DNA from: Clostridia bacterium
GTDB taxonomy: Bacteria; Bacillota; Clostridia; Oscillospirales; CAG-272
Assembly: GCA_017456005.1 (NCBI GenBank)
Contig: JAFTLJ010000014.1
Location: 17,310-81,309, forward strand
Reading direction: 5' to 3'
DNA length: 64,000 nucleotides
Made by a program: the position numbers and the translations under genes. The notes under the pieces are model-generated. The model worked only from the letters and a program-made list of their open reading frames with translations, was not told the DNA's origin and made no database searches. Below are positions 5,341-63,745 of the stretch, piece after piece (within the stretch, counting starts at the first letter, position 1; each line of letters begins with the position of its first letter).

Positions 5341-5490
5341 TAAAAAGCCGTCGCAAAGGTTGGTTCTCATAAGGAAGTTTGATTTCTACTTGTAGGGACC
5401 GGCGTCCTCGACGGTCCATTAAGCCATAATTGCATTGCAGAAGACAAAGATTAACCCCGACAGATTTTTGAACGCTCTGTCGGGGTTTGT
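5341..5490 (+). repeat. intergenic repeat family A, copy A1 (includes terminator hairpin 5455-5485)
   Basis: Shares TTCTCATAAGG, the hairpin GTAGGGACCGGCGTCCTCGACGGTCC, CATAATTGC and the hairpin CCCCGACAGA..TCTGTCGGGG with 6464-6541 (inverted), 43560-43660 and 63650-63745. Confidence 0.8.
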
Positions 5491-5511
5491 TATTCAATAA
5501 ATTGGAATTTG

Positions 5512-6114
5512 TCATTTTGTAACACACCAAATAGCTAATGGCACATAGCAGCTCACTAATACGAGTCTTTGCCAAAGACCGCCGTATCTCAAAATAGTAT
5601 TTGCGAATTTTTCTTTCTCCCCCATAATGAAGAAGCAGAAGAACAAGAACGTTGCAATAAAGCTAACAAGCGAGATCGCTCCCATAATTATATCTCCCGC
5701 TTGAAACTGCATTATTGCCAAGAGCAATGGTACAGCAATTAATGTCATAAATCCGATCGCAGAAGCACCGCCGTGAATTTTAGTCAGTGCATCCTCGTCT
5801 TGTCTGTTCTCGTTCAATGGACAAAAGCCCGAAATAATCTCACAGCCGATACCGTATATTGCAAGTAATATCCATATTGCGATTGCCAAGCCACCGATTT
5901 TTTCTTGATACAACGCATACGGAGCAATACAGAAAACGACACCCGAGAGTATGCACCACACATTGTAAATCCACTTCACAGGACTTTGCCGTGAGCCCAG
6001 TACCGAGAGTGCCATTTCTTTATGCTTATAGTTTGGATAAAAATGCGCAAGCAACAATGGTAGTAGATTATCTGCTACCAAAATAATAATCCATAATATT
6101 TTCATGTATTTCAC
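5512..6114 (-). CDS. hypothetical polytopic membrane protein
   Basis: 200-aa ORF with about 6 hydrophobic segments. GAGGTG RBS upstream. No motif I can name with confidence (possibly DUF998-like). Confidence 0.6.
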   Translation of the reverse strand: MKYMKILWIIILVADNLLPLLLAHFYPNYKHKEMALSVLGSRQSPVKWIYNVWCILSGVVFCIAPYALYQEKIGGLAIAIWILLAIYGIGCEIISGFCPLNENRQDEDALTKIHGGASAIGFMTLIAVPLLLAIMQFQAGDIIMGAISLVSFIATFLFFCFFIMGEKEKFANTILRYGGLWQRLVLVSCYVPLAIWCVTK

Positions 6115-6141
6115 CTCGCCAAATTCTTATTTATCCTTCTG

Positions 6142-6452
6142 TTTATCGCCAGTTTCGCCTTTGTATTACAAAGGCATAGGGCAAAGCCCATACCCCTATT
6201 GTTGTGCGTAACCTAAGGCTCCCTCCGGGAGGGAGCTGGCGCCGTAGGCGGCTGAGGGAGAGCGCGTTACAATGAAATTAGTACAAACCTAAAGTCACGC
6301 GGGCTCCTTCCGTCACGCTTCGCAGCGAACCCCCAAAGCTCATTTCATTCGCTTCGGGGAACCCCAGCCGCGTGCCACCTTCCTCCCGGAGGAAGGCTTT
6401 TTGCTTTCTCCCATTATAACACACATCGGCAGAGAAAACAACATCTCTGCCG
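6142..6452 (-). repeat. repeat family B, copy B1 (promoter-bearing structured leader element)
   Basis: About 310 bp, collinear with 44131-44461 in the same orientation. It ends at the RBS of the downstream minus-strand ORF. Confidence 0.85.
6413..6441 (-). promoter_or_regulatory. promoter inside repeat B1
   Basis: Minus strand reads TTGTTT-N17-TATAAT with TGT extended -10. The -35 lies in the loop of the CGGCAGAGA/TCTCTGCCG hairpin. Confidence 0.5.
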
Positions 6453-6463
6453 AAAATTATGTG

Positions 6464-6541
6464 TCGCAGACCGTCGAGGACGCCGGTCCCTACAATTTTG
6501 TAAACATCCTTATGAGAATAAACCTAAAGACGGCTTTTTAT
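6464..6541 (-). repeat. repeat family A, copy A2 (inverted partial copy)
   Basis: Its reverse complement aligns with 5341-5417 at roughly 80 percent identity by eye. The match includes an identical 26-nt hairpin segment. Confidence 0.8.
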
Positions 6542-6690
6542 ATATGAAAAATATCAAAATATTGTAATCAATTCAAGAGCGAGATATGGATATAATTCAC
6601 CAAAATGCATTAAAAAGATATTATCTGTTGACAAGCATAATAAATAAATTGTATAATAATTATAAAATATCTTGAATTTTGGAGGAAAAA

Positions 6691-7692
6691 ATGGAGTATC
6701 TTTGGCTCATCGCGGGATTTGTGCTTCTTATAGTGGGCGCCGACATATTTGTGGAAGGCAGCTCCGCTATTGCAAAGCTTTTCAAAATCCCCACAATCAT
6801 CATCGGTCTTACAATAGTAGCTCTCGGCACGAGTTTGCCGGAGGCATCTGTCAGCGTCAGCGCGGCACTTGCGGGAAGCAACGATATTGCCATAAGCAAC
6901 GTTATAGGCTCTAACATTTTCAATTTGCTCGTGGTGCTCGGTGCGAGCGCGCTTATCTGCCCTGTTAGAGTGCATTCTGCATCCATCAAAAAAGAAATTC
7001 CTTTTTCCATTTTTGTAACTGTTGCGCTCGGTGCTCTTCTTGCTATAGGCATCTCTTTTGATACCGAGGCGGATGTGCTTATGGGTATGGAAATATTCGA
7101 GCATGCGGCGTTTACCTTGGGGATTGCGGGCGGTGCGATACTCCTTGTTTTTCTTGCCCTTTATATGTATTGGCAGATAAGAGGTGCACTTAAAGCCAGA
7201 AAGAAAGGAAAAATTGTAGACGAGCCCGAGGACGAAAACAAAAAGATACCCACTATGATGGCTGTTGAAATGGTTATTCTCGGCATCGTAGGCATTATTA
7301 TGGGCGGTAATATCGTTGTTGAAAACGCTTCAGTAATAGCCGCAAACTTTGGTATGAGCCAGACTCTCATAGGTCTTACGATAGTTGCAATAGGTACTTC
7401 ATTGCCGGAGCTTGTAACGTCTATGGTTGCGGCAAAAAAGGGAGAAAGCGATATTGCGCTCGGCAATGTAATAGGTTCAAACGTATTCAACATCGTATTT
7501 ATACTTGGCTTCAGTGCGATTATTTCGCCTATGACGGTAGATGTGCTTGCTATATACGATACGCTCGTTCTGCTTGCGGTAAGCGTTCTTACACTTGTTT
7601 TTGCGAAAACAAATAAGCGTTTTTCACGTTCGGAAGGCGCTGTAATGCTTGCGATATATGCAATATACTTTGTTTACGCTATTTTGAGATAA
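6691..7692 (+). CDS. calcium/cation antiporter, CaCA (YrbG-like) family
   Basis: Two alpha-repeat motifs (GTSLPE..GSNIFNLL and GTSLPE..GSNVFNI). Start placed at the ATG 6 nt after GGAGG. Confidence 0.9.
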   Translation: MEYLWLIAGFVLLIVGADIFVEGSSAIAKLFKIPTIIIGLTIVALGTSLPEASVSVSAALAGSNDIAISNVIGSNIFNLLVVLGASALICPVRVHSASIKKEIPFSIFVTVALGALLAIGISFDTEADVLMGMEIFEHAAFTLGIAGGAILLVFLALYMYWQIRGALKARKKGKIVDEPEDENKKIPTMMAVEMVILGIVGIIMGGNIVVENASVIAANFGMSQTLIGLTIVAIGTSLPELVTSMVAAKKGESDIALGNVIGSNVFNIVFILGFSAIISPMTVDVLAIYDTLVLLAVSVLTLVFAKTNKRFSRSEGAVMLAIYAIYFVYAILR

Positions 7693-7696
7693 ACAA

Positions 7697-7740
7697 AAGA
7701 TCCCAAAGACCGATCAAAAGGTTTGTGGGATCTTTATTTA
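7697..7740 (+). terminator. terminator after antiporter gene
   Basis: GATCCCAAA...TTTGTGGGATC hairpin followed by a T-rich run. Confidence 0.6.
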
Positions 7741-7748
7741 TGTAATAG

Positions 7749-7900
7749 GCAATTGCGCGCAAATCGTGCGCAATTGCTTGTTCAAAAAAAGTTTTCCTTA
7801 TACAAAAATGCCCGATTTTCGGGCATTTTATAGTTGCCGAAGGCAACTTTTTTATATAGGCAGAAGAAAGAACAAAAAAGGCTCCCTCCAGGAGGGAGGC
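7749..7900. repeat. cluster of four independent hairpins
   Basis: GCAATTGCGC/GCGCAATTGC (7749-7777); ATGCCCG/CGGGCAT (7808-7826); GTTGCC/GGCAAC plus T6 (7833-7854); GGCTCCCTCC/GGAGGGAGGC (7880-7900, a motif shared with repeat B). Confidence 0.6.
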
Positions 7901-8096
7901 TATAACAATACACAGGGTACGCCCATACCATTATTTTGTTTCTTCGATAAGAACATCACGCTTTTGCCTGTGGGATTTTTATAGGAAGAAAAAGAAGGGG
8001 TAGATATCTATTTTGCGTTACTTTTATCATTATATATATAACGGGGCATCGCTATCGGGATTCAACTCGCGGTTGTGGAATACAACGTTGTCTCTA

Positions 8097-8125
8097 TTGT
8101 ATCAAACCTCGATTTGTGATACAAT
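8097..8125 (+). promoter_or_regulatory. sigma-A-type promoter of XRE regulator gene
   Basis: TTGTAT-N17-TACAAT with TGA extended -10. Confidence 0.45.
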
Positions 8126-8164
8126 GAATTCACAAAGGTGATGATGAATCGCAGGAGGTTTTTT

Positions 8165-9031
8165 ATGGAACTCAAAATCGGAGAAAAGATTGCAAAACAC
8201 AGAAAACTTAAAGGCTATACGCAAGAACAACTAGGAGAATTTTTGGGGGTCTCGGGACAAGCCGTATCGAAATGGGAAAACGGCGGCGTTCCGGATACGT
8301 ATTTGCTGCCGAATATCGCAAAAGTTTTGGGGGTGTCTGTTGATATATTGTTCGGAGTAGAGAAGAAGATATCCGATTATACTAAAGATGAGATACTTGA
8401 TGATCTGTTTAAGTTTTGCCTTCAAAAGACCAATTGCAAAGAAGATAAAATTGATTTTTTTGAATTTATGTTTGAAACTATATGGACTTTGCAAAGCGCA
8501 TATTTCGGGAACGAGAGCCGAACAATGTTAAAAGATATTATTGAAAAGAATAGCGGTAATCAGCAAATAACATCTCAAATCATCAACGACGAGGGAACGA
8601 CATATCTATCGCTTGTGGAAAACTTTCCGTTCTTTTGTGCGGTCGGTGATACGCCCGAAATATCCAAAAAACTGTTGTCCGAAAAGAACTTTGCGGAGTT
8701 CTTCTCTTTGCTTGCTTCGGAAGAGGGAATGAAAGCAATAATCTTCACGCAAACCGCAACGGAAACAAGCCAATACACAGCGGATATGATTGCTAAAAAA
8801 ATAGGGATCACACTTGAAAGCTTTCTTGAAGTTGAACCGTTGCTTGTTAAATACGGCCTATTGAATGAAGATAGCTTAACACTGGATGATAATGTGATCA
8901 AGGTATATCATAAATGGAGTAACCCCGAGCTTCGTCCACTGTTGATTATGGCATACCAATTTATCAATGCAAGACAGTGTTATTACGATTTCACTTGCAA
9001 CAGAACCAAACCTTATTTTGAATACGAATAA
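8165..9031 (+). CDS. XRE-family HTH transcriptional regulator with C-terminal domain of unknown function
   Basis: N-terminal HTH_3 motif (LKGYTQEQLGEFLGVSGQAVSKWENG). ATG preceded by AGGAGG. Confidence 0.85.
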   Translation: MELKIGEKIAKHRKLKGYTQEQLGEFLGVSGQAVSKWENGGVPDTYLLPNIAKVLGVSVDILFGVEKKISDYTKDEILDDLFKFCLQKTNCKEDKIDFFEFMFETIWTLQSAYFGNESRTMLKDIIEKNSGNQQITSQIINDEGTTYLSLVENFPFFCAVGDTPEISKKLLSEKNFAEFFSLLASEEGMKAIIFTQTATETSQYTADMIAKKIGITLESFLEVEPLLVKYGLLNEDSLTLDDNVIKVYHKWSNPELRPLLIMAYQFINARQCYYDFTCNRTKPYFEYE

Positions 9032-9173: not shown

Positions 9174-9626
9174 TCACGCTTCCAGCTGCTTGCCGAGAAA
9201 GGAAGCCGCTGTTTGAATAAGCTTTATTTCCGTTTCGCGGCCCGGGCATTCGCCTTTTGTTCCTTCGCCCGCAAGCGACATTACACAACCTATAACGTCA
9301 CCCTCTGTGAAAATGGGCATGGCGCAGGATATGTGGCAGCTATCGTTTTCTTCTGTAGGATGGACCTTCTCTGCCGAATTTTCGTCGGTGTAAAGCGAGC
9401 GTGCTTCTATAATTTTTTCCAGGCTATGAGAATTTTTCTTTTCCAAAAATTCTTTTTTGGGCACGCCCGCGCACGCTATGATACAGTCTTTGTCGCATAC
9501 GGCGACGGGCATGTTGCAGGTTTTATAGAGCGTTTCCGCATATTCTGCGGCGAAATCCATAAGCTCGCCTATGGGCGAATATTTTTTGAATATGACCTCG
9601 CCCTCTCTGTCTGTGTATATTTCCAG
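9174..9626 (-). pseudogene. spoVT: spoVT 3' segment (codons 34-183; GAF-like C-terminal domain) of a split gene
   Basis: LEIYTDREGEVIFKKYSPIGELMDFAAEYAETLY...AASFLGKQLEA is collinear with B. subtilis SpoVT residues 34-178 (recalled sequence). It has no start codon of its own and is read as the tail of the recombinase ORF. Confidence 0.9.
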
Positions 9627-11387
9627 CGGGTCGCCGCCGCTGATAACGTTGACACGGAAAACCTTATCGCGCCTTTTTTTGGCGGATTGGGCTGCCACGG
9701 TGGAAAGCTCCTCTGCGGCTTTTTCGATATTTTCCGTGCCGAGGTTAAAATTTACGGCTTGCTTTTCTTTTTCGAAGTGTTCTATTTTACCCGTGCGCAG
9801 AAGCTCGTCTACGTCTGCCTTCAGCTTTATTTCTATGACATCCTCGTAAACGATTATCCTGTCGATGATAAGGTGCAGGTCGCGCTTGTCGAGCTTTTCC
9901 TTTTCGAGTATGTCGCTGAATATGTCGATGACCGTTCTTGCCACGCGGTTCACCTTCGTGATGGTGTTGGTGGTGTTTGCCACCATAGCGAGCTGATTTT
10001 CAAGCCCGTCTATGCGGTTGTTTGCTTCTTCTATGAGCGCGTCGTAGGTTTCTTCTATTATGCGTGCATCGCCCGATGCACGCGCAACGTCGCGTATTTT
10101 TTGGCGCATCATAACCTTTAGCTCGGCGCGTTCTTCCTCAATTTGCTTGCGCAGCTCGTCTGCGGCTTGCATTCCGCTTTCCGTCGTGCGCTTTTCGAAG
10201 TTCAGGTTCTCCTGCAAAATGCGGAGCATTTCGGCGGAATTATCCCTTACCTTGCGGATATACTCTTTTAAGAGGCTATCGAGAAAATCCACGCGGATGT
10301 GGTGCGAGGTGCACCCGGCCGTGCCCCTTACGTGGTAAGTTCCGCAGGTGTATGCGGGCGCGAGATTTTTGCGGCTCATAGCAAACATTGGCGAACCGCA
10401 ATCGCCGCAGAAGAGGAAGCCGGAGTAGGTGTTGTCGTATTTTTTCACACCGCGATAGTTGCTTTTCGTGCGCTGTGCGAGCTGTTCCTGCGCTGTGGCA
10501 AACACTCTGTAATCCACTATTGCTTCGTGGTGGTTTTCAAATACGATATGCTCGCTTTTGTCCAGCTCCACATCGTTGCCGTTGATTTTCTTGCGGCGGT
10601 ATTTGTGCTCGCGCAGCGTACCTATATAGAAATCGTTGTTGATTATTTCGGAAACGGTGACTATGCTCCACTGCTCGCGCACCTTACCCTTGTATTCGTC
10701 TCCCTGCGCCTCCTTGCGTGCGCGTTCGCACATTCTCGGCGTGGGGATGTGCTTGTCTGTGAGGTGGTTGGCTATTTTTTGGTAGCCCCAGCCGTCGATA
10801 TAGAGGTCGAAAATAGTCCTCACCACCTCTGCGGCGGGCTTGTCCACCTCAAAGCTCATTTTTTTGGAGTTGGTCATAACGTACCCGTAGGGAACAGAGC
10901 ATATCCACTCGCCCTTTGCCTGCCTGCTGGCGATAACGTCGGAAACCTTGCGGCTGGCATCGGTAACGGGCATTTCGTTCACGAAGAAGTAGAGCTTTAT
11001 TTTCATCCAGTCGTCCGTGTGGTCCTGGTAATAGTCCACGCCGTCGCCTATGGCTATTATGCGTATATCGTGCTCGGCGATGTCCTCAAATTCTGCCAGC
11101 CCCTTGCCCGTGCGCCTCGAAAAACGGCTAAGGTCCTTTACGATTAGTATATCGTACTCGCCGCGCAGAAGCTTCGGGCGGAGCTTTAAATAATAATCTG
11201 GGCGTTGCTCAAAGGTATAGCCCGAATGGTCGCGGTCTTCATAGTAATCCACGTCGCTTGTGGGAAAATGGAGCTTACAGTAATCTCCGATAATAGCCTT
11301 CTGGTTTTCGATACTCGTGTTGTCCTTGTCGAGCTCAAGGTCAACTGAAATACGCGTATAGGCTGCTATTTTAAAACGCTCTAACAA
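9174..11387 (-). CDS. large serine recombinase (about 587 aa) fused in frame to the spoVT 3' segment
   Basis: The ORF carries a resolvase catalytic motif (AAYTRISV, VKDLSRFSRR), a recombinase domain, a zinc ribbon (CGDCGSPM...CGTYHVRGTAGC) and a coiled coil. TTG start after GGAG. The last 150 aa are SpoVT-derived. Confidence 0.9.
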   Translation of the reverse strand: MLERFKIAAYTRISVDLELDKDNTSIENQKAIIGDYCKLHFPTSDVDYYEDRDHSGYTFEQRPDYYLKLRPKLLRGEYDILIVKDLSRFSRRTGKGLAEFEDIAEHDIRIIAIGDGVDYYQDHTDDWMKIKLYFFVNEMPVTDASRKVSDVIASRQAKGEWICSVPYGYVMTNSKKMSFEVDKPAAEVVRTIFDLYIDGWGYQKIANHLTDKHIPTPRMCERARKEAQGDEYKGKVREQWSIVTVSEIINNDFYIGTLREHKYRRKKINGNDVELDKSEHIVFENHHEAIVDYRVFATAQEQLAQRTKSNYRGVKKYDNTYSGFLFCGDCGSPMFAMSRKNLAPAYTCGTYHVRGTAGCTSHHIRVDFLDSLLKEYIRKVRDNSAEMLRILQENLNFEKRTTESGMQAADELRKQIEEERAELKVMMRQKIRDVARASGDARIIEETYDALIEEANNRIDGLENQLAMVANTTNTITKVNRVARTVIDIFSDILEKEKLDKRDLHLIIDRIIVYEDVIEIKLKADVDELLRTGKIEHFEKEKQAVNFNLGTENIEKAAEELSTVAAQSAKKRRDKVFRVNVISGGDPLEIYTDREGEVIFKKYSPIGELMDFAAEYAETLYKTCNMPVAVCDKDCIIACAGVPKKEFLEKKNSHSLEKIIEARSLYTDENSAEKVHPTEENDSCHISCAMPIFTEGDVIGCVMSLAGEGTKGECPGRETEIKLIQTAASFLGKQLEA
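9606..9655. other. left junction of element (att site half: core CGGGTCGCC 9627-9635)
   Basis: The 9-bp core is identical to 43253-43261. The element-side arm ACGTTGACAC (9646-9655) is the inverted complement of 43234-43243. Confidence 0.8.
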
Positions 11388-35424: not shown

Positions 35425-35940
35425 ACGAAATGTCTTCTACTTGCGCTGGGATATGCGACTCGCCTTTAGCCCTTGATCGAAAATTCCCGAAGCATTTGCT
35501 TGAGGTAAAAGGGAAGAGCGTATTTGATTGTATGATTGACGATATTGACACGCTTATTATCACGTGAGACTATCTGCTTGACTGCAGACTCACTGAATTT
35601 ATAAATACACAAAAGCCCAAAACAGCTTATGCGTTATGCGATGCTATTGGACGAATGAGCAGAAGCTTCTCAAATGTGACATCGTAACTATCGATGAAAA
35701 CGACAAGATACTCGAAAGGGCAGAGAAATCGTTGCACTCGTGACGCGTTAATACGTACCTCCTTTCTACTTTTATGCAAAAGGAGGATATAAATCCTATT
35801 TGAACATGCATCTATGCCGGTTTTAGTGTTGATACTCCCTGAAAATGTGATTCTGCAAACAGACGGGTGTTTATGCGATGCAAATGCCGGGTGGGTATCA
35901 TAATATAGTAAAAATCGAAAGCTACGAAAAGTACAGACCA
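35425..35940 (+). pseudogene. decayed, internally deleted copy of the sugar-1-P nucleotidyltransferase gene at 40752-41486
   Basis: Nucleotide collinearity with 40752-41470 is visible by eye (KCLLLALGYATRL-stop). The ATG is lost, stop codons are present, and a central block of about 230 bp is missing. The upstream leader 35335-35424 is also duplicated (compare 40655-40751). Confidence 0.8.
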
Positions 35941-39437: not shown

Positions 39438-40613
39438 ATGACCGCATACGAAACATTTGAACAAACCTACCGTAAGCCACCTGAATACACCACATTTACC
39501 CCATACCGTATCTGCCCGCTCGGTGCTCATTCCGACCATCAGCTCGGCAAGATAACGGGCTTTGCCATTGACAAAGGCATACATATCGCGTACGGACCGA
39601 AGCAGAACGGTATTATTGAGATACAGTCCGTGCAGTTCCCGAAGCGAGCGCAGTGGCACGTAGCGTCCACCCCTTCCGAGAAGCAGGGAGACTGGGCCGA
39701 CCACCTTCGCGGTGCTACAATAGCTCTTAACAGCCGCTATCCTCTGCGCACAGGCCTTTGCGCGGTGCTCGACGGCGAGCTTCCGATAGGCGGTCTTTCC
39801 TCGTCTGCGGCGGTGATTATCACTTTTCTATCGGCCCTCTGCCAGATGAATGGTATTCACTTGACAGAATCAGAGCTTGTGCAGATATCGCTCGAAGCAG
39901 AGAATAAATACGTCGGCGTTTCCTGCGGCAAGCTCGACCAGAGCTGTGAGGTATATTCCAGAAAGGACAACCTCCTTTATATGGACCTCAAGGATGACAG
40001 CTACGAGCTTATCCCTCAGCATCCCGACATGAAGCCGTATAAGATAGCGATATTCTTCAGCGGCTTGGAGCGCAGTTTGGCAAGCTCGAAATTCAATATG
40101 CGCGTTGACGAATGCCGTTCCGCTGCATATGCCCTTATGGCATATGCGGGAATGGACTACGGCAAATTTAATGAAACAAACTTGCGTGACGTTCCCAGAG
40201 AAGTATACGAGCAGTATAAGGACAAGCTTCCCGAAAACTGGCGCAAACGTGCCGAGCATTGGTACACTGAATTTGACCGTGTGCAGAGAGGCGCCGAAGC
40301 ATGGCGCAGAGGCGATATAGAAGAATTCGGCAGACTTTCGTTCGAAAGCGGACACTCGTCTATCTACAACTGGGAAACAGGCTCTCCCGAGCTTATCAAG
40401 CTCTATGAGATTATGACCAAGACTCAAGGCATCTACGGCGGACGCTTCTCGGGCGCAGGCTTCAAGGGCTGTTGCATGGCGCTTATCGATCCTGCTTACG
40501 AAGAAAGCATCGTAGAAAAAGTAACACGCGAATATCTCGCGGCGTTCCCCGAGCTTGAGGGAAAATATTCCGCACATATCTGCGAAAGTGCAGACGGAGT
40601 AAAACTCCCATAA
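39438..40613 (+). CDS. galactokinase-family (GHMP) sugar-1-kinase, substrate unknown
   Basis: Motifs PLGAHSDHQ, PIGGLSSSAAV, NMRVDEC and GGRFSGAGFKGC. Confidence 0.8.
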   Translation: MTAYETFEQTYRKPPEYTTFTPYRICPLGAHSDHQLGKITGFAIDKGIHIAYGPKQNGIIEIQSVQFPKRAQWHVASTPSEKQGDWADHLRGATIALNSRYPLRTGLCAVLDGELPIGGLSSSAAVIITFLSALCQMNGIHLTESELVQISLEAENKYVGVSCGKLDQSCEVYSRKDNLLYMDLKDDSYELIPQHPDMKPYKIAIFFSGLERSLASSKFNMRVDECRSAAYALMAYAGMDYGKFNETNLRDVPREVYEQYKDKLPENWRKRAEHWYTEFDRVQRGAEAWRRGDIEEFGRLSFESGHSSIYNWETGSPELIKLYEIMTKTQGIYGGRFSGAGFKGCCMALIDPAYEESIVEKVTREYLAAFPELEGKYSAHICESADGVKLP

Positions 40614-40751
40614 GGAAGTTTTACAAAAAAACTTAATACATAAAACCAAAAGCTTTGGCGAGAACCTTAGGAACGAACACGTTTGACTAAAGTTTTTTTG
40701 CCAAGCTTTTTTTCAAAAAAGCGAAAAAAACAGCGGAGGAATGAACTAAAC

Positions 40752-41486
40752 ATGAAATGTCTTATACTTGCGGCGGGATATGCAACTCGCCTTTACCCAC
40801 TCACGGAAAACTTCCCGAAACCTTTGCTTGAAGTAAAAGGGAAGACCATACTTGACTGGCTGATTGACGACATCGACACGCTCGGCGCGGTTGACGAATA
40901 CATTGTTATCTCAAACCATAAATTTGCTCACCATTTCGATAAATGGGCTGCTGAAAAAACGCAGAAAGTAACCGTTGTTGACGACGGCACAAGCACGAAC
41001 GAAACCAGGCTCGGTGCTGTTAAAGATATACAATATGCTATTGATAAGCTTGGGCTCGATGATGATATACTCGTAATTGCAGGTGATAATTTGCTCGACT
41101 TCAGCCTCACTGAGTTTATCAAATATGCGAAAGCTAAAAATAGCTCCTGCATCATGCGTTACTATGAAGCAAACGAGCAGAAGCTTCTCAAATGCGGCGT
41201 CGTAACGATCGATGAAAACGATAAGATACTCGAAATGACAGAGAAATCTCCTACACCTGCAACGCATTGGTGCACGCCTCCTTTCTATTTTTACACGAAA
41301 GAAGATGCAAAACTTGTTCAGGCAGGAATAGATTCAGGATGCGGCGTTGACGCTCCCGGGAGCTACATCGCATGGCTCTGCAAGCAGACGAACGTTTATG
41401 CTATGGAAATGCCCGGCAAACGCTATGACATAGGCAACCTTGAAAGCTACGAAAAAGTGCAGAAGGAGTATAACGGAATATGCTGA
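40752..41486 (+). CDS. sugar-1-phosphate nucleotidyltransferase
   Basis: MKCLILAAGYATRLYPLTENFPKPLL, an NTP-transferase signature. ATG after GGAGG. Confidence 0.85.
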   Translation: MKCLILAAGYATRLYPLTENFPKPLLEVKGKTILDWLIDDIDTLGAVDEYIVISNHKFAHHFDKWAAEKTQKVTVVDDGTSTNETRLGAVKDIQYAIDKLGLDDDILVIAGDNLLDFSLTEFIKYAKAKNSSCIMRYYEANEQKLLKCGVVTIDENDKILEMTEKSPTPATHWCTPPFYFYTKEDAKLVQAGIDSGCGVDAPGSYIAWLCKQTNVYAMEMPGKRYDIGNLESYEKVQKEYNGIC

Positions 41487-43450: not shown

Positions 43451-43559
43451 TTTTTTTGCGGATGGATTTATATTAAAAAAGCCGCCACAATGGCGTGGTG
43501 TTCTGATCGGAGAAATTGTGTAGCGCACGGTAGGGGCGAACATCCGAGCAAACTTGGCG

Positions 43560-43660
43560 GTTCGCCCGCGGGAGACCACAGGTCTCCACTACGGATAGGG
43601 CATAATTGCTATGAAGGAAAAATAGCAAGCCCCGACAGACCTTCAAATCTGTCGGGGCTC
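43560..43660 (+). repeat. repeat family A-related segment with terminator hairpin (43629-43658)
   Basis: GGAGACCACAGGTCTCC hairpin, then CATAATTGC, then GCCCCGACAGA..TCTGTCGGGGC. Confidence 0.65.
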
Positions 43661-43663
43661 GTT

Positions 43664-44116
43664 TTACGTATTATTTTGATTGGAGAGCAGTGCAGTAAAA
43701 GACAATTCCAAGATAGGACTGGGGAAGTTTTCTTCTATCCACCCCATCCTTTTACTGTCGTTATCAAACCAAACTAAAAAATCCACATTTTTATCGGGGG
43801 CAAATGCATTTGAACGGTCAAAGCATGGTCCGCTTATCTTGCCGTTTAATAATGTGCCAACAATATGATACCATCCGCCGTAATTATCCTTTTCGTTGGT
43901 TGTACCGAATACTTCTCCCGGCTTTCGGGGATCAATCCCTAAGCTGTTTAGAAAATCTACAACAGCAGCCGAGCAAGACATAATTGCATTAGGAAAACGT
44001 TGACAACGTTCGCAAGAGCATACTTCACTTGTTGTGAAGGAGAAATTACTTGTATAATAAGCTCTTGTTTTTTCAACATCTACATCAACCGTATATCTAC
44101 CGAATTGAAATATCAC
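43664..44116 (-). CDS. hypothetical protein
   Basis: 150-aa ORF with a GTG start 8 nt after GGAGG. The composition is realistic. No family was recognised. Confidence 0.6.
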   Translation of the reverse strand: MIFQFGRYTVDVDVEKTRAYYTSNFSFTTSEVCSCERCQRFPNAIMSCSAAVVDFLNSLGIDPRKPGEVFGTTNEKDNYGGWYHIVGTLLNGKISGPCFDRSNAFAPDKNVDFLVWFDNDSKRMGWIEENFPSPILELSFTALLSNQNNT

Positions 44117-44130
44117 CTGTATATCCTCCT

Positions 44131-44461
44131 TTTATCGCCAGTTTCGCCTTTGTATTACAGCGTTGCAAGCGGCGCATGCTTCGGGCAAAGCCCATACCCC
44201 TAAAGATGCACGAACGCGTCCAAAGGCTCCCTCCGGGAGGGAGCTCCCGACGAAGTCGGGTGAGGGAGAATGCGTGACAATAAAACATATCAAAACTTCA
44301 AAGTTACGCGGGCTCCTTCCGTCACGCTTCGCAGCGAACCCCCAAAGCTCATTTCATTCGCTTCGGGGAACCCCTGCCGCGTGCCACCTTCCTCCCGGAG
44401 GAAGGCTTTTTTGCTAACCCCATTATACCACAAATCGGCAGAGAAAACAAGTTCTCTGCCG
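44131..44461 (-). repeat. repeat family B, copy B2
   Basis: Collinear with 6142-6452. The core 44307-44415 differs from 6298-6405 by one substitution and one T indel. Confidence 0.85.
44422..44450 (-). promoter_or_regulatory. promoter inside repeat B2
   Basis: Minus strand reads TTGTTT-N17-TATAAT with TGG extended -10. Confidence 0.5.
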
Positions 44462-44520
44462 ATATTTTGTACCCTCTATTTCTCCGCTAAGAATGCAGAG
44501 AGAATGGCGGCTTTTCGGCT

Positions 44521-62490: not shown

Positions 62491-63621
62491 GTGGCAAAAT
62501 TGAATTTTTACAGAATTTACGCAAAAATAGACCTTTCGGCTATTTCATATAACATAAAGCTGATAAAAGAAAGAATAGGCAAAAGCAAGCTCATGCTTGT
62601 GGTAAAAGCCGATGCATATGGGCACGGTGCGCTCGCCGTGGCAAAAGCCTTTGAAAAGGATGCCGATTATTTTGCCGTGGCGGAAATGGGCGAGGCTATA
62701 GAGCTGCGTGCGGGCGGTGTACGCACGCCGATACTTATTTTGGGCTACACCTCGCCATCGCTCTACGAGCTGGCGATAGAGCACGATATAACGCTGACCA
62801 TATTTACTTTAAAAGCGGCGCAGGCGCTTTCGGAGCTGTGCGTGCGCACGGGCAAAACGGCGCGTGTTCACTTCGCCGTGGATACGGGCATGGGGCGCAT
62901 AGGCTGGCGTGTGTGCGAACATAGCGCAGACGAAGCGGCAGAGGCGGCGAGCCTGCCGGGGATCGCGGCAGAGGGCATTTTCAGCCATTTTGCAACGGCA
63001 GACCTTGCGGAAGACTCTTTTGCGGAGGAACAGCGAGAGCAGTTTGAACGCTTTGTAGAAATGCTTAAAACGCGCGGAGTGGCTGTACCCATAAAGCACA
63101 TGAACAACAGCGCGGGTATTTTTAAGTTCCGCGAGCAATACGATATGGTTCGCGCCGGGATAGTGATGTACGGGCTGTCCCCCTCTGAAAACGTAGCGGC
63201 GGCAGGTGGCTTTGCGGTGCGCCCGGCGATGGAGCTTATAACTCACATAGCACACGTAAAGGAGCTGGAAGAGGGCAAGCCGATAAGCTACGGCTCTACA
63301 TACGTTACAGAGCGCAAAACGCGCGTTGCCACACTTCCCGTGGGCTATGCAGACGGCTACCCACGCGCGCTTTCGGGCAAGGGAGAGGTGCTTGTGCGCG
63401 GTGTGCGCTGCCCGATACTCGGCAGGGTGTGTATGGACCAGATGATGGTCGACATAAGCGCCGTGCCGGAGGCAGAGGTAGAAGAGCCTGTCGTGCTTAT
63501 GGGGCGCGATGGGGCAGAGCATATTTCCGCAGACGAAATAGCCGCGCACGCGGACACGATAAACTACGAGATTGTATGCGGTATAGCAAAGCGTGTGCCT
63601 AGAATTTATTTTAAAAATTGA
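62491..63621 (+). CDS. alr: alanine racemase
   Basis: PLP motif VVKADAYGHG, collinear with Alr. Confidence 0.9.
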   Translation: MAKLNFYRIYAKIDLSAISYNIKLIKERIGKSKLMLVVKADAYGHGALAVAKAFEKDADYFAVAEMGEAIELRAGGVRTPILILGYTSPSLYELAIEHDITLTIFTLKAAQALSELCVRTGKTARVHFAVDTGMGRIGWRVCEHSADEAAEAASLPGIAAEGIFSHFATADLAEDSFAEEQREQFERFVEMLKTRGVAVPIKHMNNSAGIFKFREQYDMVRAGIVMYGLSPSENVAAAGGFAVRPAMELITHIAHVKELEEGKPISYGSTYVTERKTRVATLPVGYADGYPRALSGKGEVLVRGVRCPILGRVCMDQMMVDISAVPEAEVEEPVVLMGRDGAEHISADEIAAHADTINYEIVCGIAKRVPRIYFKN

Positions 63622-63649
63622 AAAATGAAGAAAAAACGAGCTCAAAAAG

Positions 63650-63745
63650 GCTCCTTCTCATAAGGCTGTTAAATTAAAATTGATTCGCAGTAGACAAAGA
63701 ATTAACCCCGACAGATTGCAAGGTCTGTCGGGGTTGGTTTTATTC
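63650..63745 (+). repeat. repeat family A, copy A3 (with terminator hairpin 63706-63733)
   Basis: TTCTCATAAGG...GCAGTAGACAAAGAATTAACCCCGACAGA..TCTGTCGGGGTT, collinear with 5367-5490 but lacking the central hairpin. Confidence 0.75.

Follow-up and report, generated by a model that had tools for sequence, protein, structure and literature searches.

Two kinds of small non-autonomous element come closest to the repeats considered here: the mobile insertion cassette (MIC), a concept used in PMC5444012, and the promoter-bearing MITE (a miniature inverted-repeat transposable element), exemplified by the Correia elements of Neisseria. The promoters of MITEs and the stable structures of their transcripts have been reviewed (PMC10969869). 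The repeats in question lie in a 64-kb stretch of contig JAFTLJ010000014.1 from a Clostridia bacterium, the whole of which (64,000 nucleotides) I will call the window. It contains two copies of a sequence of about 310-330 bp, A (6142-6452) and B (44131-44461), each 5' of a different minus-strand open reading frame (ORF). I will argue that these copies are probably the front ends of non-autonomous mobile cassettes of about 1-1.2 kb found in gut Clostridia, each carrying an unrelated passenger gene, its own promoter and a core of hairpins.

The window units have most of the features tested for MITEs and MICs: terminal inverted repeats, a junction repeat, presence/absence polymorphism, the lack of a transposase gene and the presence of a passenger gene. 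As with MICs and with MITEs such as the Correia elements, they are non-autonomous, bounded by inverted repeats and flanked by a short junction repeat, and they are multi-copy, intergenic and polymorphic in presence, with a predicted internal sigma-70-type promoter and stable hairpins; MICs carry passengers as well. In size, the window units (1.0-1.2 kb, with a passenger) are like MICs, and a cargo-less mini element of about 290 bp, found in a related contig (L085), is like a MITE. The present element differs from both in four respects: it has five independent internal hairpins kept by compensatory change, beyond any end-to-end complementarity; those insertions with readable flanks lie in terminator hairpins; the cognate frame encodes a tyrosine enzyme, a REP-associated tyrosine transposase (RAYT), not a DDE transposase; and its cassettes may be arranged in tandem, each with its own promoter.

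The boundaries of the unit containing copy A come from related loci, which were reached through homologues of the flanking aldose epimerase, the window's exact epimerase not being on record. In two contigs (L080 and L081), whose epimerase is 90% identical in protein sequence, the flanks are identical to those of the window and the terminator after the epimerase gene is whole, AAAAAGCCGTC-GCAAA-GACGGCTTTTT (the site reads ...AAAAAGCCGTCGCAAAGACGGCTTTTT..., within the intact terminator stretch ...AAAAAGCCGTCGCAAAGACGGCTTTTTATATATG...). Because these related contigs keep the terminator intact, they are taken to represent the empty site. In comparison, the window has an additional 1167 bp (5359-6525) in the loop of that terminator, with AAAG on each side. 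In a second lineage, the site is empty in L082 and filled in L083 and L084, whose epimerase is identical to that of L082 and which carry the insertion in the loop of that terminator in the opposite orientation. The mini element of L085, with the same kind of ends, occupies the same intergenic region. An earlier reading of the window from its sequence alone (the sequence-only reading) had proposed a portable module, an idea that is partly supported: copy A does lie in a discrete insertion that is missing from an otherwise identical site. The parts of this insertion, other than its front end, are as follows.

5359-6525, minus strand: element A, 1167 bp by comparison with the empty site, comprising inverted ends, inserts like repetitive extragenic palindromic (REP) units, hairpin and promoter, core, tail, cargo ORF and terminator
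5355-5358 (left) and 6526-6529 (right): AAAG junction direct repeat, a single AAAG in the empty site
6503-6525, minus strand: 5'-end inverted repeat, AGGTTTATTCTCATAAGGATGTT, with the same end in L042, L051, L053, L076, L021, L024, L037 and L028
6469-6495, minus strand: REP-like unit (GTAG, then a hairpin) between the end repeat and the promoter hairpin, the perfect 27-nt inverted partner of 5390-5416
5512-6114, minus strand: cargo ORF A, a DUF998 membrane protein, its likely start the ATG at 6105 with GAGGTG 7 nt upstream
5458-5488, minus strand: cassette terminator hairpin, CCCCGACAGA..TCTGTCGGGG, kept after differing cargo in L071, L051, L037 and L036
5359-5380, plus strand: 3'-end inverted repeat, GTTGGTTCTCATAAGGAAGTTT, near-identical in L071

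The inverted ends of element A are imperfect and about 22 bp long, and element ends of this kind are kept in at least 10 other loci. The AAAG may be either a 4-bp target-site duplication or an identity between the target and the tetranucleotide at which the element end is cleaved. The REP-like insert is variable, absent in L051 and doubled in L021, L024 and L036. An invertible promoter segment between the perfect 27-nt inverted repeats was considered and dropped, since these repeats are independent REP-like inserts that L051 lacks. Units consisting of GTAG plus a hairpin, and inverted doublets of them resembling REPINs, occur at 5390-5416, 6469-6495 and 43530-43592 of the window, as well as in L021, L024, L028, L036, L037, L011, L052 and others; their number varies (0, 1 or 2) both in the gap from end repeat to promoter hairpin and in that from cassette terminator to opposite end.

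In L077, where the site is empty, the epimerase locus shows no more than a hairpin with an apex similar to the end motif. Solitary hairpins with the end-repeat core at their apex (..CTCCCATAAGGAAG.. / ..CTTCCGATAAGGAG..) are found right after gene ends at 40596-40625 of the window and at 4855-4895 of L077, and could be excision footprints, micro-elements or native targets. The same contig, L077, encodes a large serine recombinase (Resolvase, Recombinase, Zn_ribbon_recom) at 6096-8345 on the minus strand, downstream of a Na/Ca exchanger gene. A 737-aa ORF at a roughly matching place in the window (9174-11387, minus strand) is probably its counterpart, in which case a link between the recombinase and the cassette is unlikely.

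The unit containing copy B, and a third unit so far as it lies in the window, are built in the same way, as the following features indicate.

43496-44504, minus strand: element B, putative extent 1009 bp, with CGCCA repeats and the split terminator halves AAAAGCCGCCA ... TGGCGGCTTTTTT outside it
44478-44493, minus strand: 5'-end inverted repeat of element B, TTCTTAGCGGAGAAAT, with its partner at 43501-43516
43664-44116, minus strand: cargo ORF B, 150 aa, an ORFan with no Pfam match
43626-43661, minus strand: cassette terminator hairpin of element B, which the terminator scan calls terminator-like on either strand
63620-63740, minus strand: 3' end of a third, alpha-type cassette, with terminator CCCCGACAGA..TCTGTCGGGG and end repeat AAAAAGGCTCCTTCTCATAAGGCTG, its ORF and leader lying beyond the window end

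There are thus three cassettes within 64 kb, the third represented by its 3' end alone. Halves of a host terminator flank the inverted ends of copy A (AAAAAGCCGTC ... GACGGCTTTTT) and of copy B. The position in a terminator loop is shown for element A and for L083 and L084; for element B it is suggested by the split halves, and for the third cassette the 3' half alone is visible. The exact empty site of element B was not recovered among the related contigs, and its CGCCA junction repeat is accordingly a presumed one. Locus B is nonetheless polymorphic, with a version carrying a RAYT gene at the same junction in L093, a reversed mini core in L094 and no element in L095.

The sequence-only reading had placed the repeat at about 310-330 bp. 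The repeat is there, while the shared sequence goes further, to common terminators and bracketing inverted repeats. Behind each cargo ORF stands a terminator of one type, CCCCGACAGA..TCTGTCGGGG, and inverted repeats enclose each unit. The earlier idea that the module supplies any host gene that happens to follow it is not supported: the ORF and its terminator are cargo within the same unit. In the subtype to which both window copies belong, called alpha, the 3' ends share this terminator and carry the 5' end motif TTCTCATAAGGA in inverted form, and the ends in the window and in L071 are near-identical despite different cargo. Alpha cargo genes are mutually unrelated, as the sequence-only reading had said of the two it saw: they encode a DUF998 protein, several ORFans, a regulator of the AraC type and a nitroreductase-like protein. 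In L036, two cassettes follow a single end repeat in a tandem array (6520-8000): the first runs from its promoter through a mini core, the tail, a 165-aa ORF and a terminator to a REP unit, and the second from its own promoter through a full core and tail to an ORF. Since mini and full cores stand here in tandem, promoter, core, tail, ORF and terminator seem to act as exchangeable modules.

On the favored explanation, a unit would read, in order, as an inverted-repeat end of the TTCTCATAAGGA type, to which REP-like inserts may be added; a hairpin resembling a terminator, its loop and 3' flank forming a predicted sigma-A-type promoter with an extended -10; a pseudo-symmetric core of 189 nt and five hairpins; a conserved tail of about 75-90 nt; a Shine-Dalgarno sequence and variable cargo ORF; and an intrinsic terminator followed by the other inverted-repeat end. 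The internal promoter would transcribe core, tail and cargo as a single mRNA, and the element would give its own passenger gene insulation, a promoter and a long structured 5' untranslated region. The end hairpins of the element may take over termination from the host terminator that it splits; P1, too, reads as a terminator on the opposite strand. The copies in the window would be derivatives that lack a transposase and are moved in trans, an enzyme of the RAYT type being the most plausible agent.

The front ends themselves are real repeats, their similarity in the alignment far above chance. A repeat search gave a 168-nt block of 92% identity, 6291-6458 against 44300-44467, which is the 5' portion, and a second shared block of 66 nt with 83% identity; the 3' portion is patchy, with indels. 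(Elsewhere in the window, 35603-35730 and 41121-41248 form a 128-nt direct repeat of 80% identity, the second copy inside a nucleotidyl-transferase-like ORF at 40683-41486, which probably reflects paralogous sugar-nucleotide genes.) A covariance model built from homologues finds exactly two sites in the window, both of them the copies originally described, and the opposite strand scores no more than 80 and 69 bits. The parts of the front ends are as follows.

6427-6452, minus strand: terminator-like hairpin of copy A, CGGCAGAGA-N8-TCTCTGCCG, from sequence reading and the terminator scan, kept in alpha-type copies and 5' of RAYT genes
6436-6441, minus strand: TTGTTT in the loop of the CGGCAGAGA/TCTCTGCCG hairpin, copy A, from sequence reading
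6413-6421, minus strand: predicted extended -10 of copy A, TGtTATAAT, 17 nt past TTGTTT, from sequence reading and conservation
6215-6403, minus strand: five-hairpin core P1-P5 of copy A, 227 bits in the covariance model, with covariation
6142-6214, minus strand: alpha-type tail of copy A, TAGGGGTATGGGCTTTGCCC..CTTTGTAATACAAAGGCGAAACTGGCGATAAA, stopping before the ribosome-binding site, from the alignment; the same tail stands 3' of RAYT genes in L093 and L098
44436-44461, minus strand: promoter hairpin of copy B, from sequence reading and the terminator scan (hairpin-promoter stretch 44422-44461)
44445-44450, minus strand: TTGTTT of copy B, from sequence reading
44422-44430, minus strand: predicted extended -10 of copy B, TGgTATAAT, from sequence reading
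44223-44412, minus strand: five-hairpin core of copy B, 224.5 bits in the covariance model
44131-44222, minus strand: alpha-type tail of copy B, from the alignment

Both copies have, as had been described, the hairpin that carries TTGTTT in its loop, then a spacer of 17 nt and TGnTATAAT; hairpin and extended -10 promoter are kept in at least 13 homologous copies from other genomes. The hairpins proposed for the leader fared less evenly: CCTTCCTCC-GGG-AGGAAGG and GCTCCCTCC-CGG-AGGGAGC occur in both copies, whereas GCCTTTGTA-AT-TACAAAGGC is whole in copy A only, its 5' arm being gone in copy B. Similarity stops at GGCGATAAA (6142 and 44131), directly 5' of the Shine-Dalgarno sequence of each of the two unrelated ORFs, which agrees with the proposed end at the ribosome-binding site.

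The consensus structure of the core, obtained with RNAalifold from 44 sequences, consists of five local hairpins.

P1: GCCUUCCUC / GAGGAAGGU
P2: base CACGC / GCGUG, closing a domain that varies from a GNRA-type tetraloop to as much as 55 nt
P3: GGAAGGAG with CUCCCUC, plus CGCG/CGCG, with a variable, AU-rich loop
P4: the fourth local hairpin of the core
P5: GCUCCCUC / GAGGGAGC

The junctions UGG, ACGG, CA and AG are kept across the core alignment. By pair counting, 98.2% of cells are paired as compared to 93.1% in shuffled alignments (none of 500 as high), and the figure drops to 38-55% when partner columns are slid. Over 39 pairs in the 65 forward copies of the covariance-model alignment, 94.0% are paired (shuffle mean 85.6%), and two-sided changes occur at 29 of the 39 pairs, as compared to a mean of 10.9 and a maximum of 16 in the shuffles. 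Covariation, suggested earlier as a check, thus supports the structure. Successive positions of P4 illustrate the changes, with GC/CG/AU, CG/UA and AU/CG/GC/UA, and where P3 has a conserved A.C mismatch, other subtypes show A-U, G-C or U-A instead. To judge from these sequences, the core hairpins are clearly under selection, by way of compensatory change. I lean towards the view that the core is a transcribed structural or stabilising module, which may also exist as a free RNA of about 270-300 nt.

Two other possibilities for the core were rejected. A long-range helix closing P1 on P5, suggested by single-sequence folding, is paired in 78.7% of cases, with systematic mismatches, as compared to 98% and 95% for the local hairpins, and is favored in one lineage only (the SUG2050 minis). 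A small peptide, beginning at an ATG in the P2 loop (MSFGGSLRSVTEGAR..), was dismissed because the P2 domain is wholly replaced in other subtypes and because the changes are compensatory, not synonymous.

The family to which the core belongs has no counterpart in Rfam 15: there were no matches at gathering score over the whole window, and E-value mode around both copies returned noise, in line with the earlier failure to assign the repeat to a known riboswitch class. BLASTN of the element against the GenBank plasmid and phage collections gave no match, and a full-text literature search with core sequence strings found nothing. Among species-representative genomes, a two-anchor pattern scan matched 57 loci in 36 Clostridia gut assemblies (my count, by accession prefixes), with at most six loci per genome, besides about 10 chance hits in unrelated phyla; the scan of metagenomes gave seven true copies. 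All true hits come from metagenome-assembled genomes of animal and human guts, labeled Clostridia, Oscillospiraceae, Acutalibacteraceae or 'Eubacteriales'. The covariance model adds diverged 'mini' copies and fragments beside primary copies, often in tandem clusters.

The copies fall into subtypes. Alpha copies have the CGGCAGAGA hairpin and promoter and a tail to GGCGATAAA, followed by a ribosome-binding site and ORF. Beta, delta and epsilon copies have other promoter-like boxes, and their tails, of three types, end in intrinsic terminators on the same strand; several sit between convergent genes (e.g., in L005 and L008). Boxes resembling a -10 precede the core in several subtypes. With so many copies standing alone with their own terminators or between convergent genes, the family is not an obligate 5' leader, contrary to what the window copies had suggested. 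As to orientation, the downstream neighbour is almost evenly divided over all copies (23 same-strand, 19 opposite-strand). The upstream neighbour shares the orientation of the copy 44 times and differs from it 17 times (p=0.0007). This bias, the -10-like boxes and the same-strand terminators speak for transcription of the core.

Partial forms of the element also occur. At 7860-7960 of the window, 3' of the Na/Ca exchanger gene, there is a likely relic, a lone P1/P5-like hairpin AAAAAAGGCTCCCTCCAGGAGGGAGGC followed by the end-repeat-like TTTCTTCGATAAGAAC, which the covariance model hits weakly (12.4 bits). GC-rich viral contigs from IMG/VR (L086-L092) carry half-modules alone. Some comprise P1, a short hairpin P2 and ACGGAGGGAG; others mirror these, as CUCCCUC-P4-P5. 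L092 has a 3' half and, 16 nt further on, a 5' half, both 3' of a gene that I provisionally take to encode a restriction-modification specificity subunit; longest-ORF calling is unreliable in such GC-rich contigs, and no conclusion is drawn from gene context there.

A possible source of mobility appears in L093, the closest relative at locus B, where the neighbouring sigma-like protein is 99% identical. It shares the left end, hairpin and promoter of copy B; next come a 165-aa ORF, in the place of the core, and then the alpha tail. The ORF matches NCBIfam REP_Tyr_transpos (E=8e-22, 77.7 bits, with a cut-off of 80), as compared to 19.7 bits for IS200, and also matches Pfam Y1_Tnp. In a second species (L098-L103), the order is end-like repeats, hairpin, promoter, RAYT gene, tail, kinase-like ORF, terminator and end-like repeat. 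The RAYT ORFs of L093 and L098 are 165-175 aa long, and a protein search found more than 4000 homologues, many on very short contigs. Because L093 and L098 share the frame around the RAYT gene, the window module is read as a RAYT expression frame with a hairpin module in the transposase slot. That sister elements hold a RAYT gene between promoter and tail, in the place of the core, is not accommodated by the leader that the sequence-only reading had proposed.

Two side observations concern these genes. The RAYT genes (L093 2269-2766 and L098 2501-3028) contain two inverted segments in their coding sequence, GTAGGGGCGATTCACGAATCGCCC and its complement, encoding ..VVGAIHESP.. and ..RAIRESPLRG..; they are closely like the dispersed GTAG REP units of the same genomes. 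As compared to L098, L099 and L100 (2190-2375) differ by an indel of 184 nt 5' of the RAYT frame. This indel is bounded by inverted ends (GGGAACCTCTAAAAACTC .. GAGTTTTTAGAGGTGACC) and probably represents a further family of small MITEs.

The resemblance to RAYT/REP systems goes beyond the presence of a RAYT gene (REP_Tyr_transpos) in the same frame, since units of GTAG plus hairpin and their inverted doublets crowd the ends and the core is itself a pseudo-symmetric doublet of two-hairpin modules, of which singlets also occur; this is resemblance only. The core lacks the GTAG head that defines a REP, it has about 190 nt and five hairpins where a REPIN is a doublet of units of about 35 nt, and it has a promoter and terminators in fixed orientation and replaces the RAYT gene instead of flanking it; the units, moreover, carry cargo ORFs. 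IS200 elements are laid out with a terminator-like hairpin at the left end against incoming transcription, then a promoter, a leader and a small Y1 transposase gene. The RAYT frame shares with the IS200/IS605 family the terminator-like left hairpin, the promoter, the leader and the small Y1 gene, and its left hairpin CGGCAGAGA..TCTCTGCCG resembles the post-cargo hairpin CCCCGACAGA..TCTGTCGGGG, similar end hairpins being an IS200/IS605 trait. It differs in that the enzyme scores as RAYT, TnpB is absent, and the present units have imperfect inverted ends of about 22 bp and a junction repeat, both lacking in IS200/IS605. Integron gene cassettes may be set beside them too: the present cassettes have their own promoters, whereas integron ORFs are promoter-less, with an attC site after the ORF and the array next to intI, and no integrase recurred among the neighbours of copies when neighbouring ORFs were clustered.

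Several points weigh against the favored reading. The window units encode just the DUF998 protein and the 150-aa ORFan, and a tblastn search of the window with RAYT found nothing, so that no transposase is encoded in the copies or elsewhere in the window. The RAYT copy of L098 stands at the same locus in six samples and so gives the impression of a resident gene, not of a transposon that still moves. Inverted ends should not be required by a tyrosine (HUH) transposase, nor should it duplicate its target. The junction repeats AAAG and CGCCA fit a DDE enzyme at least as well as an HUH enzyme, although no DDE transposase with these ends was found by neighbour-ORF clustering or end-repeat scans, and a scan of viral contigs for the end repeat gave no matches. 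Since the junction repeat and inverted ends are unlike the products of a tyrosine HUH enzyme, the identity of the mobilising enzyme is uncertain. The right end of beta-type copies was not found. A consensus scan of the window called the upstream hairpin terminator-like and did not call the promoter, a miss owing to the fit of TTGTTT to TTGACA at only 3 of 6 positions. Finally, G.U-type mismatches at paired sites are no more common than A.C-type mismatches (43 and 51, three fixed sites excluded), and this parity, with the near two-fold symmetry of the core, means that the hairpins could be selected as DNA, not RNA.

The last point favors the strongest of the alternatives, one that I regard as possible though less probable than the mobile cassette: that the core is a palindromic repeat at the level of DNA, like a REPIN doublet or an IS200-type end, serving a transposase as single-stranded or cruciform substrate, with its RNA functionless. 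The right half of the core (Pyr2-P4-P5) is approximately the reverse complement of the left half (P1-P2-Pur2), which accounts for the 60-80-bit matches on the reverse strand. Lone half-modules and fragments in either orientation, viral contigs included, the GTAG-type REP units gathered at element ends and the occupation of the RAYT slot by the core would also follow from it. Yet the core has no GTAG head, its orientation to promoter-like boxes and terminators is fixed in all subtypes, the co-orientation of upstream genes is not random, and the G.U that closes P1 is invariant (64 of 64), with another G.U present in 39 copies. On these data, selection may act on either RNA or DNA.

It is rather unlikely that the core is a multi-copy family of genes for trans-acting small RNAs, regulatory or protein-sequestering, the window copies being cases of read-through into a neighbouring ORF. 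Beta, delta and epsilon copies would suit this, as units of about 270-300 nt with their own promoter-like boxes and terminators, often between convergent genes; tandem clusters look like sibling small RNAs, and one orthologous copy is kept in two species (L011 and L022). But what is conserved is the helices and junctions, with no conserved single-stranded 'seed', and the P2 domain, including an 11-nt loop that looks invariant, is replaced in other subtypes. When all ORFs lying up to 4 kb from 66 copies were clustered, nothing but spurious ORFs overlapping the element came out, hence no recurrent partner protein family, and the unit that bears the core shows presence/absence polymorphism, inverted ends and cargo.

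A riboswitch-like leader, sensing a signal and controlling the gene downstream, is very improbable. The module is long, conserved and backed by covariation, it stops at the ribosome-binding site in alpha-type copies, and segments of CCUCC and GGAGG type could in principle mask a generic Shine-Dalgarno sequence. Against this, the downstream genes have no common function, the downstream neighbour lies on the opposite strand in 19 of 42 cases, many copies run into terminators that no gene follows, a transposase ORF can replace the core in the same frame, and near-identity over 36 assemblies is unlike paralogous riboswitches.

Least credible of all is a core RNA that guides or regulates a recombinase into terminator loops, as do the bridge RNA of IS110 or the omega RNA of IS605, for although the core is constant even in the smallest elements (L085) and stands in the transposase slot behind the same promoter, terminator loops are targeted by insertions, and the P3 loop of copy A matches its own end junction over 10 nt (CUUUAGGUUU and CTTTAGGTTT), the resemblance of loop to end fails to track over eight other copies, the flanks of copy B are unmatched by its P4 and P3 loops, neighbour-ORF clustering found no bridge-RNA-type or TnpB-type recombinase or other conserved protein nearby, and Rfam gave no match to omega or HEARO RNAs. 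The identity in copy A lies between 6289-6298 and 6521-6530; three alpha copies with TTTAGG loops have TTAGG ends too, and five other copies break the pattern. Guide-like complementarity of the variable loops to ends or targets was therefore rejected as a general property, resting on a single match.

ISPpu9 of Pseudomonas putida, an element of the IS110 family, is described as inserted in palindromic repeats and as carrying the gene for the small RNA Ssr9, extra copies of which occur elsewhere in the genome (PMC12288879). It is like the present element in being a mobile element in palindromes with a small-RNA module, and unlike it in having a recombinase of another family, an RNA 3' of the transposase gene and no cargo ORFs; the likeness is one of description.

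What is new here is the combination of a five-hairpin module, backed by covariation, in the transposase slot, self-contained expression signals for passenger genes, a location in terminator hairpins and a RAYT-type relative. It is doubtful whether, as a further step, the core can be seen as a transcribed but non-coding partner to the RAYT gene, within an association of transposase and repeat new for Clostridia. If it can, elements without rayT would keep the structured RNA (or a single-stranded DNA form) for recognition, for targeting terminator loops or for regulating a RAYT enzyme in trans, and would be a protein-free, RNA-bearing cassette vehicle for accessory genes.

MICs, RAYT/REP systems and structured non-coding RNAs are usually treated apart; in the present family, a single frame can hold a RAYT gene or, in its stead, a conserved hairpin module. 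The core adds to the known structured families one that is supported by covariation and absent from Rfam. Since L083 and L084 end inside elements and RAYT genes are often found on very short contigs, such elements may fragment metagenome assemblies. Where genetic tools for an organism are missing, the frame of terminator, promoter, leader and terminator would offer a natural expression cassette that insulates itself. For the largely uncultured Clostridia of the gut, it appears to be a compact vehicle for the spread of small accessory genes that each bring a promoter and terminator of their own, and landing within terminator hairpins would keep the cost to the host low.

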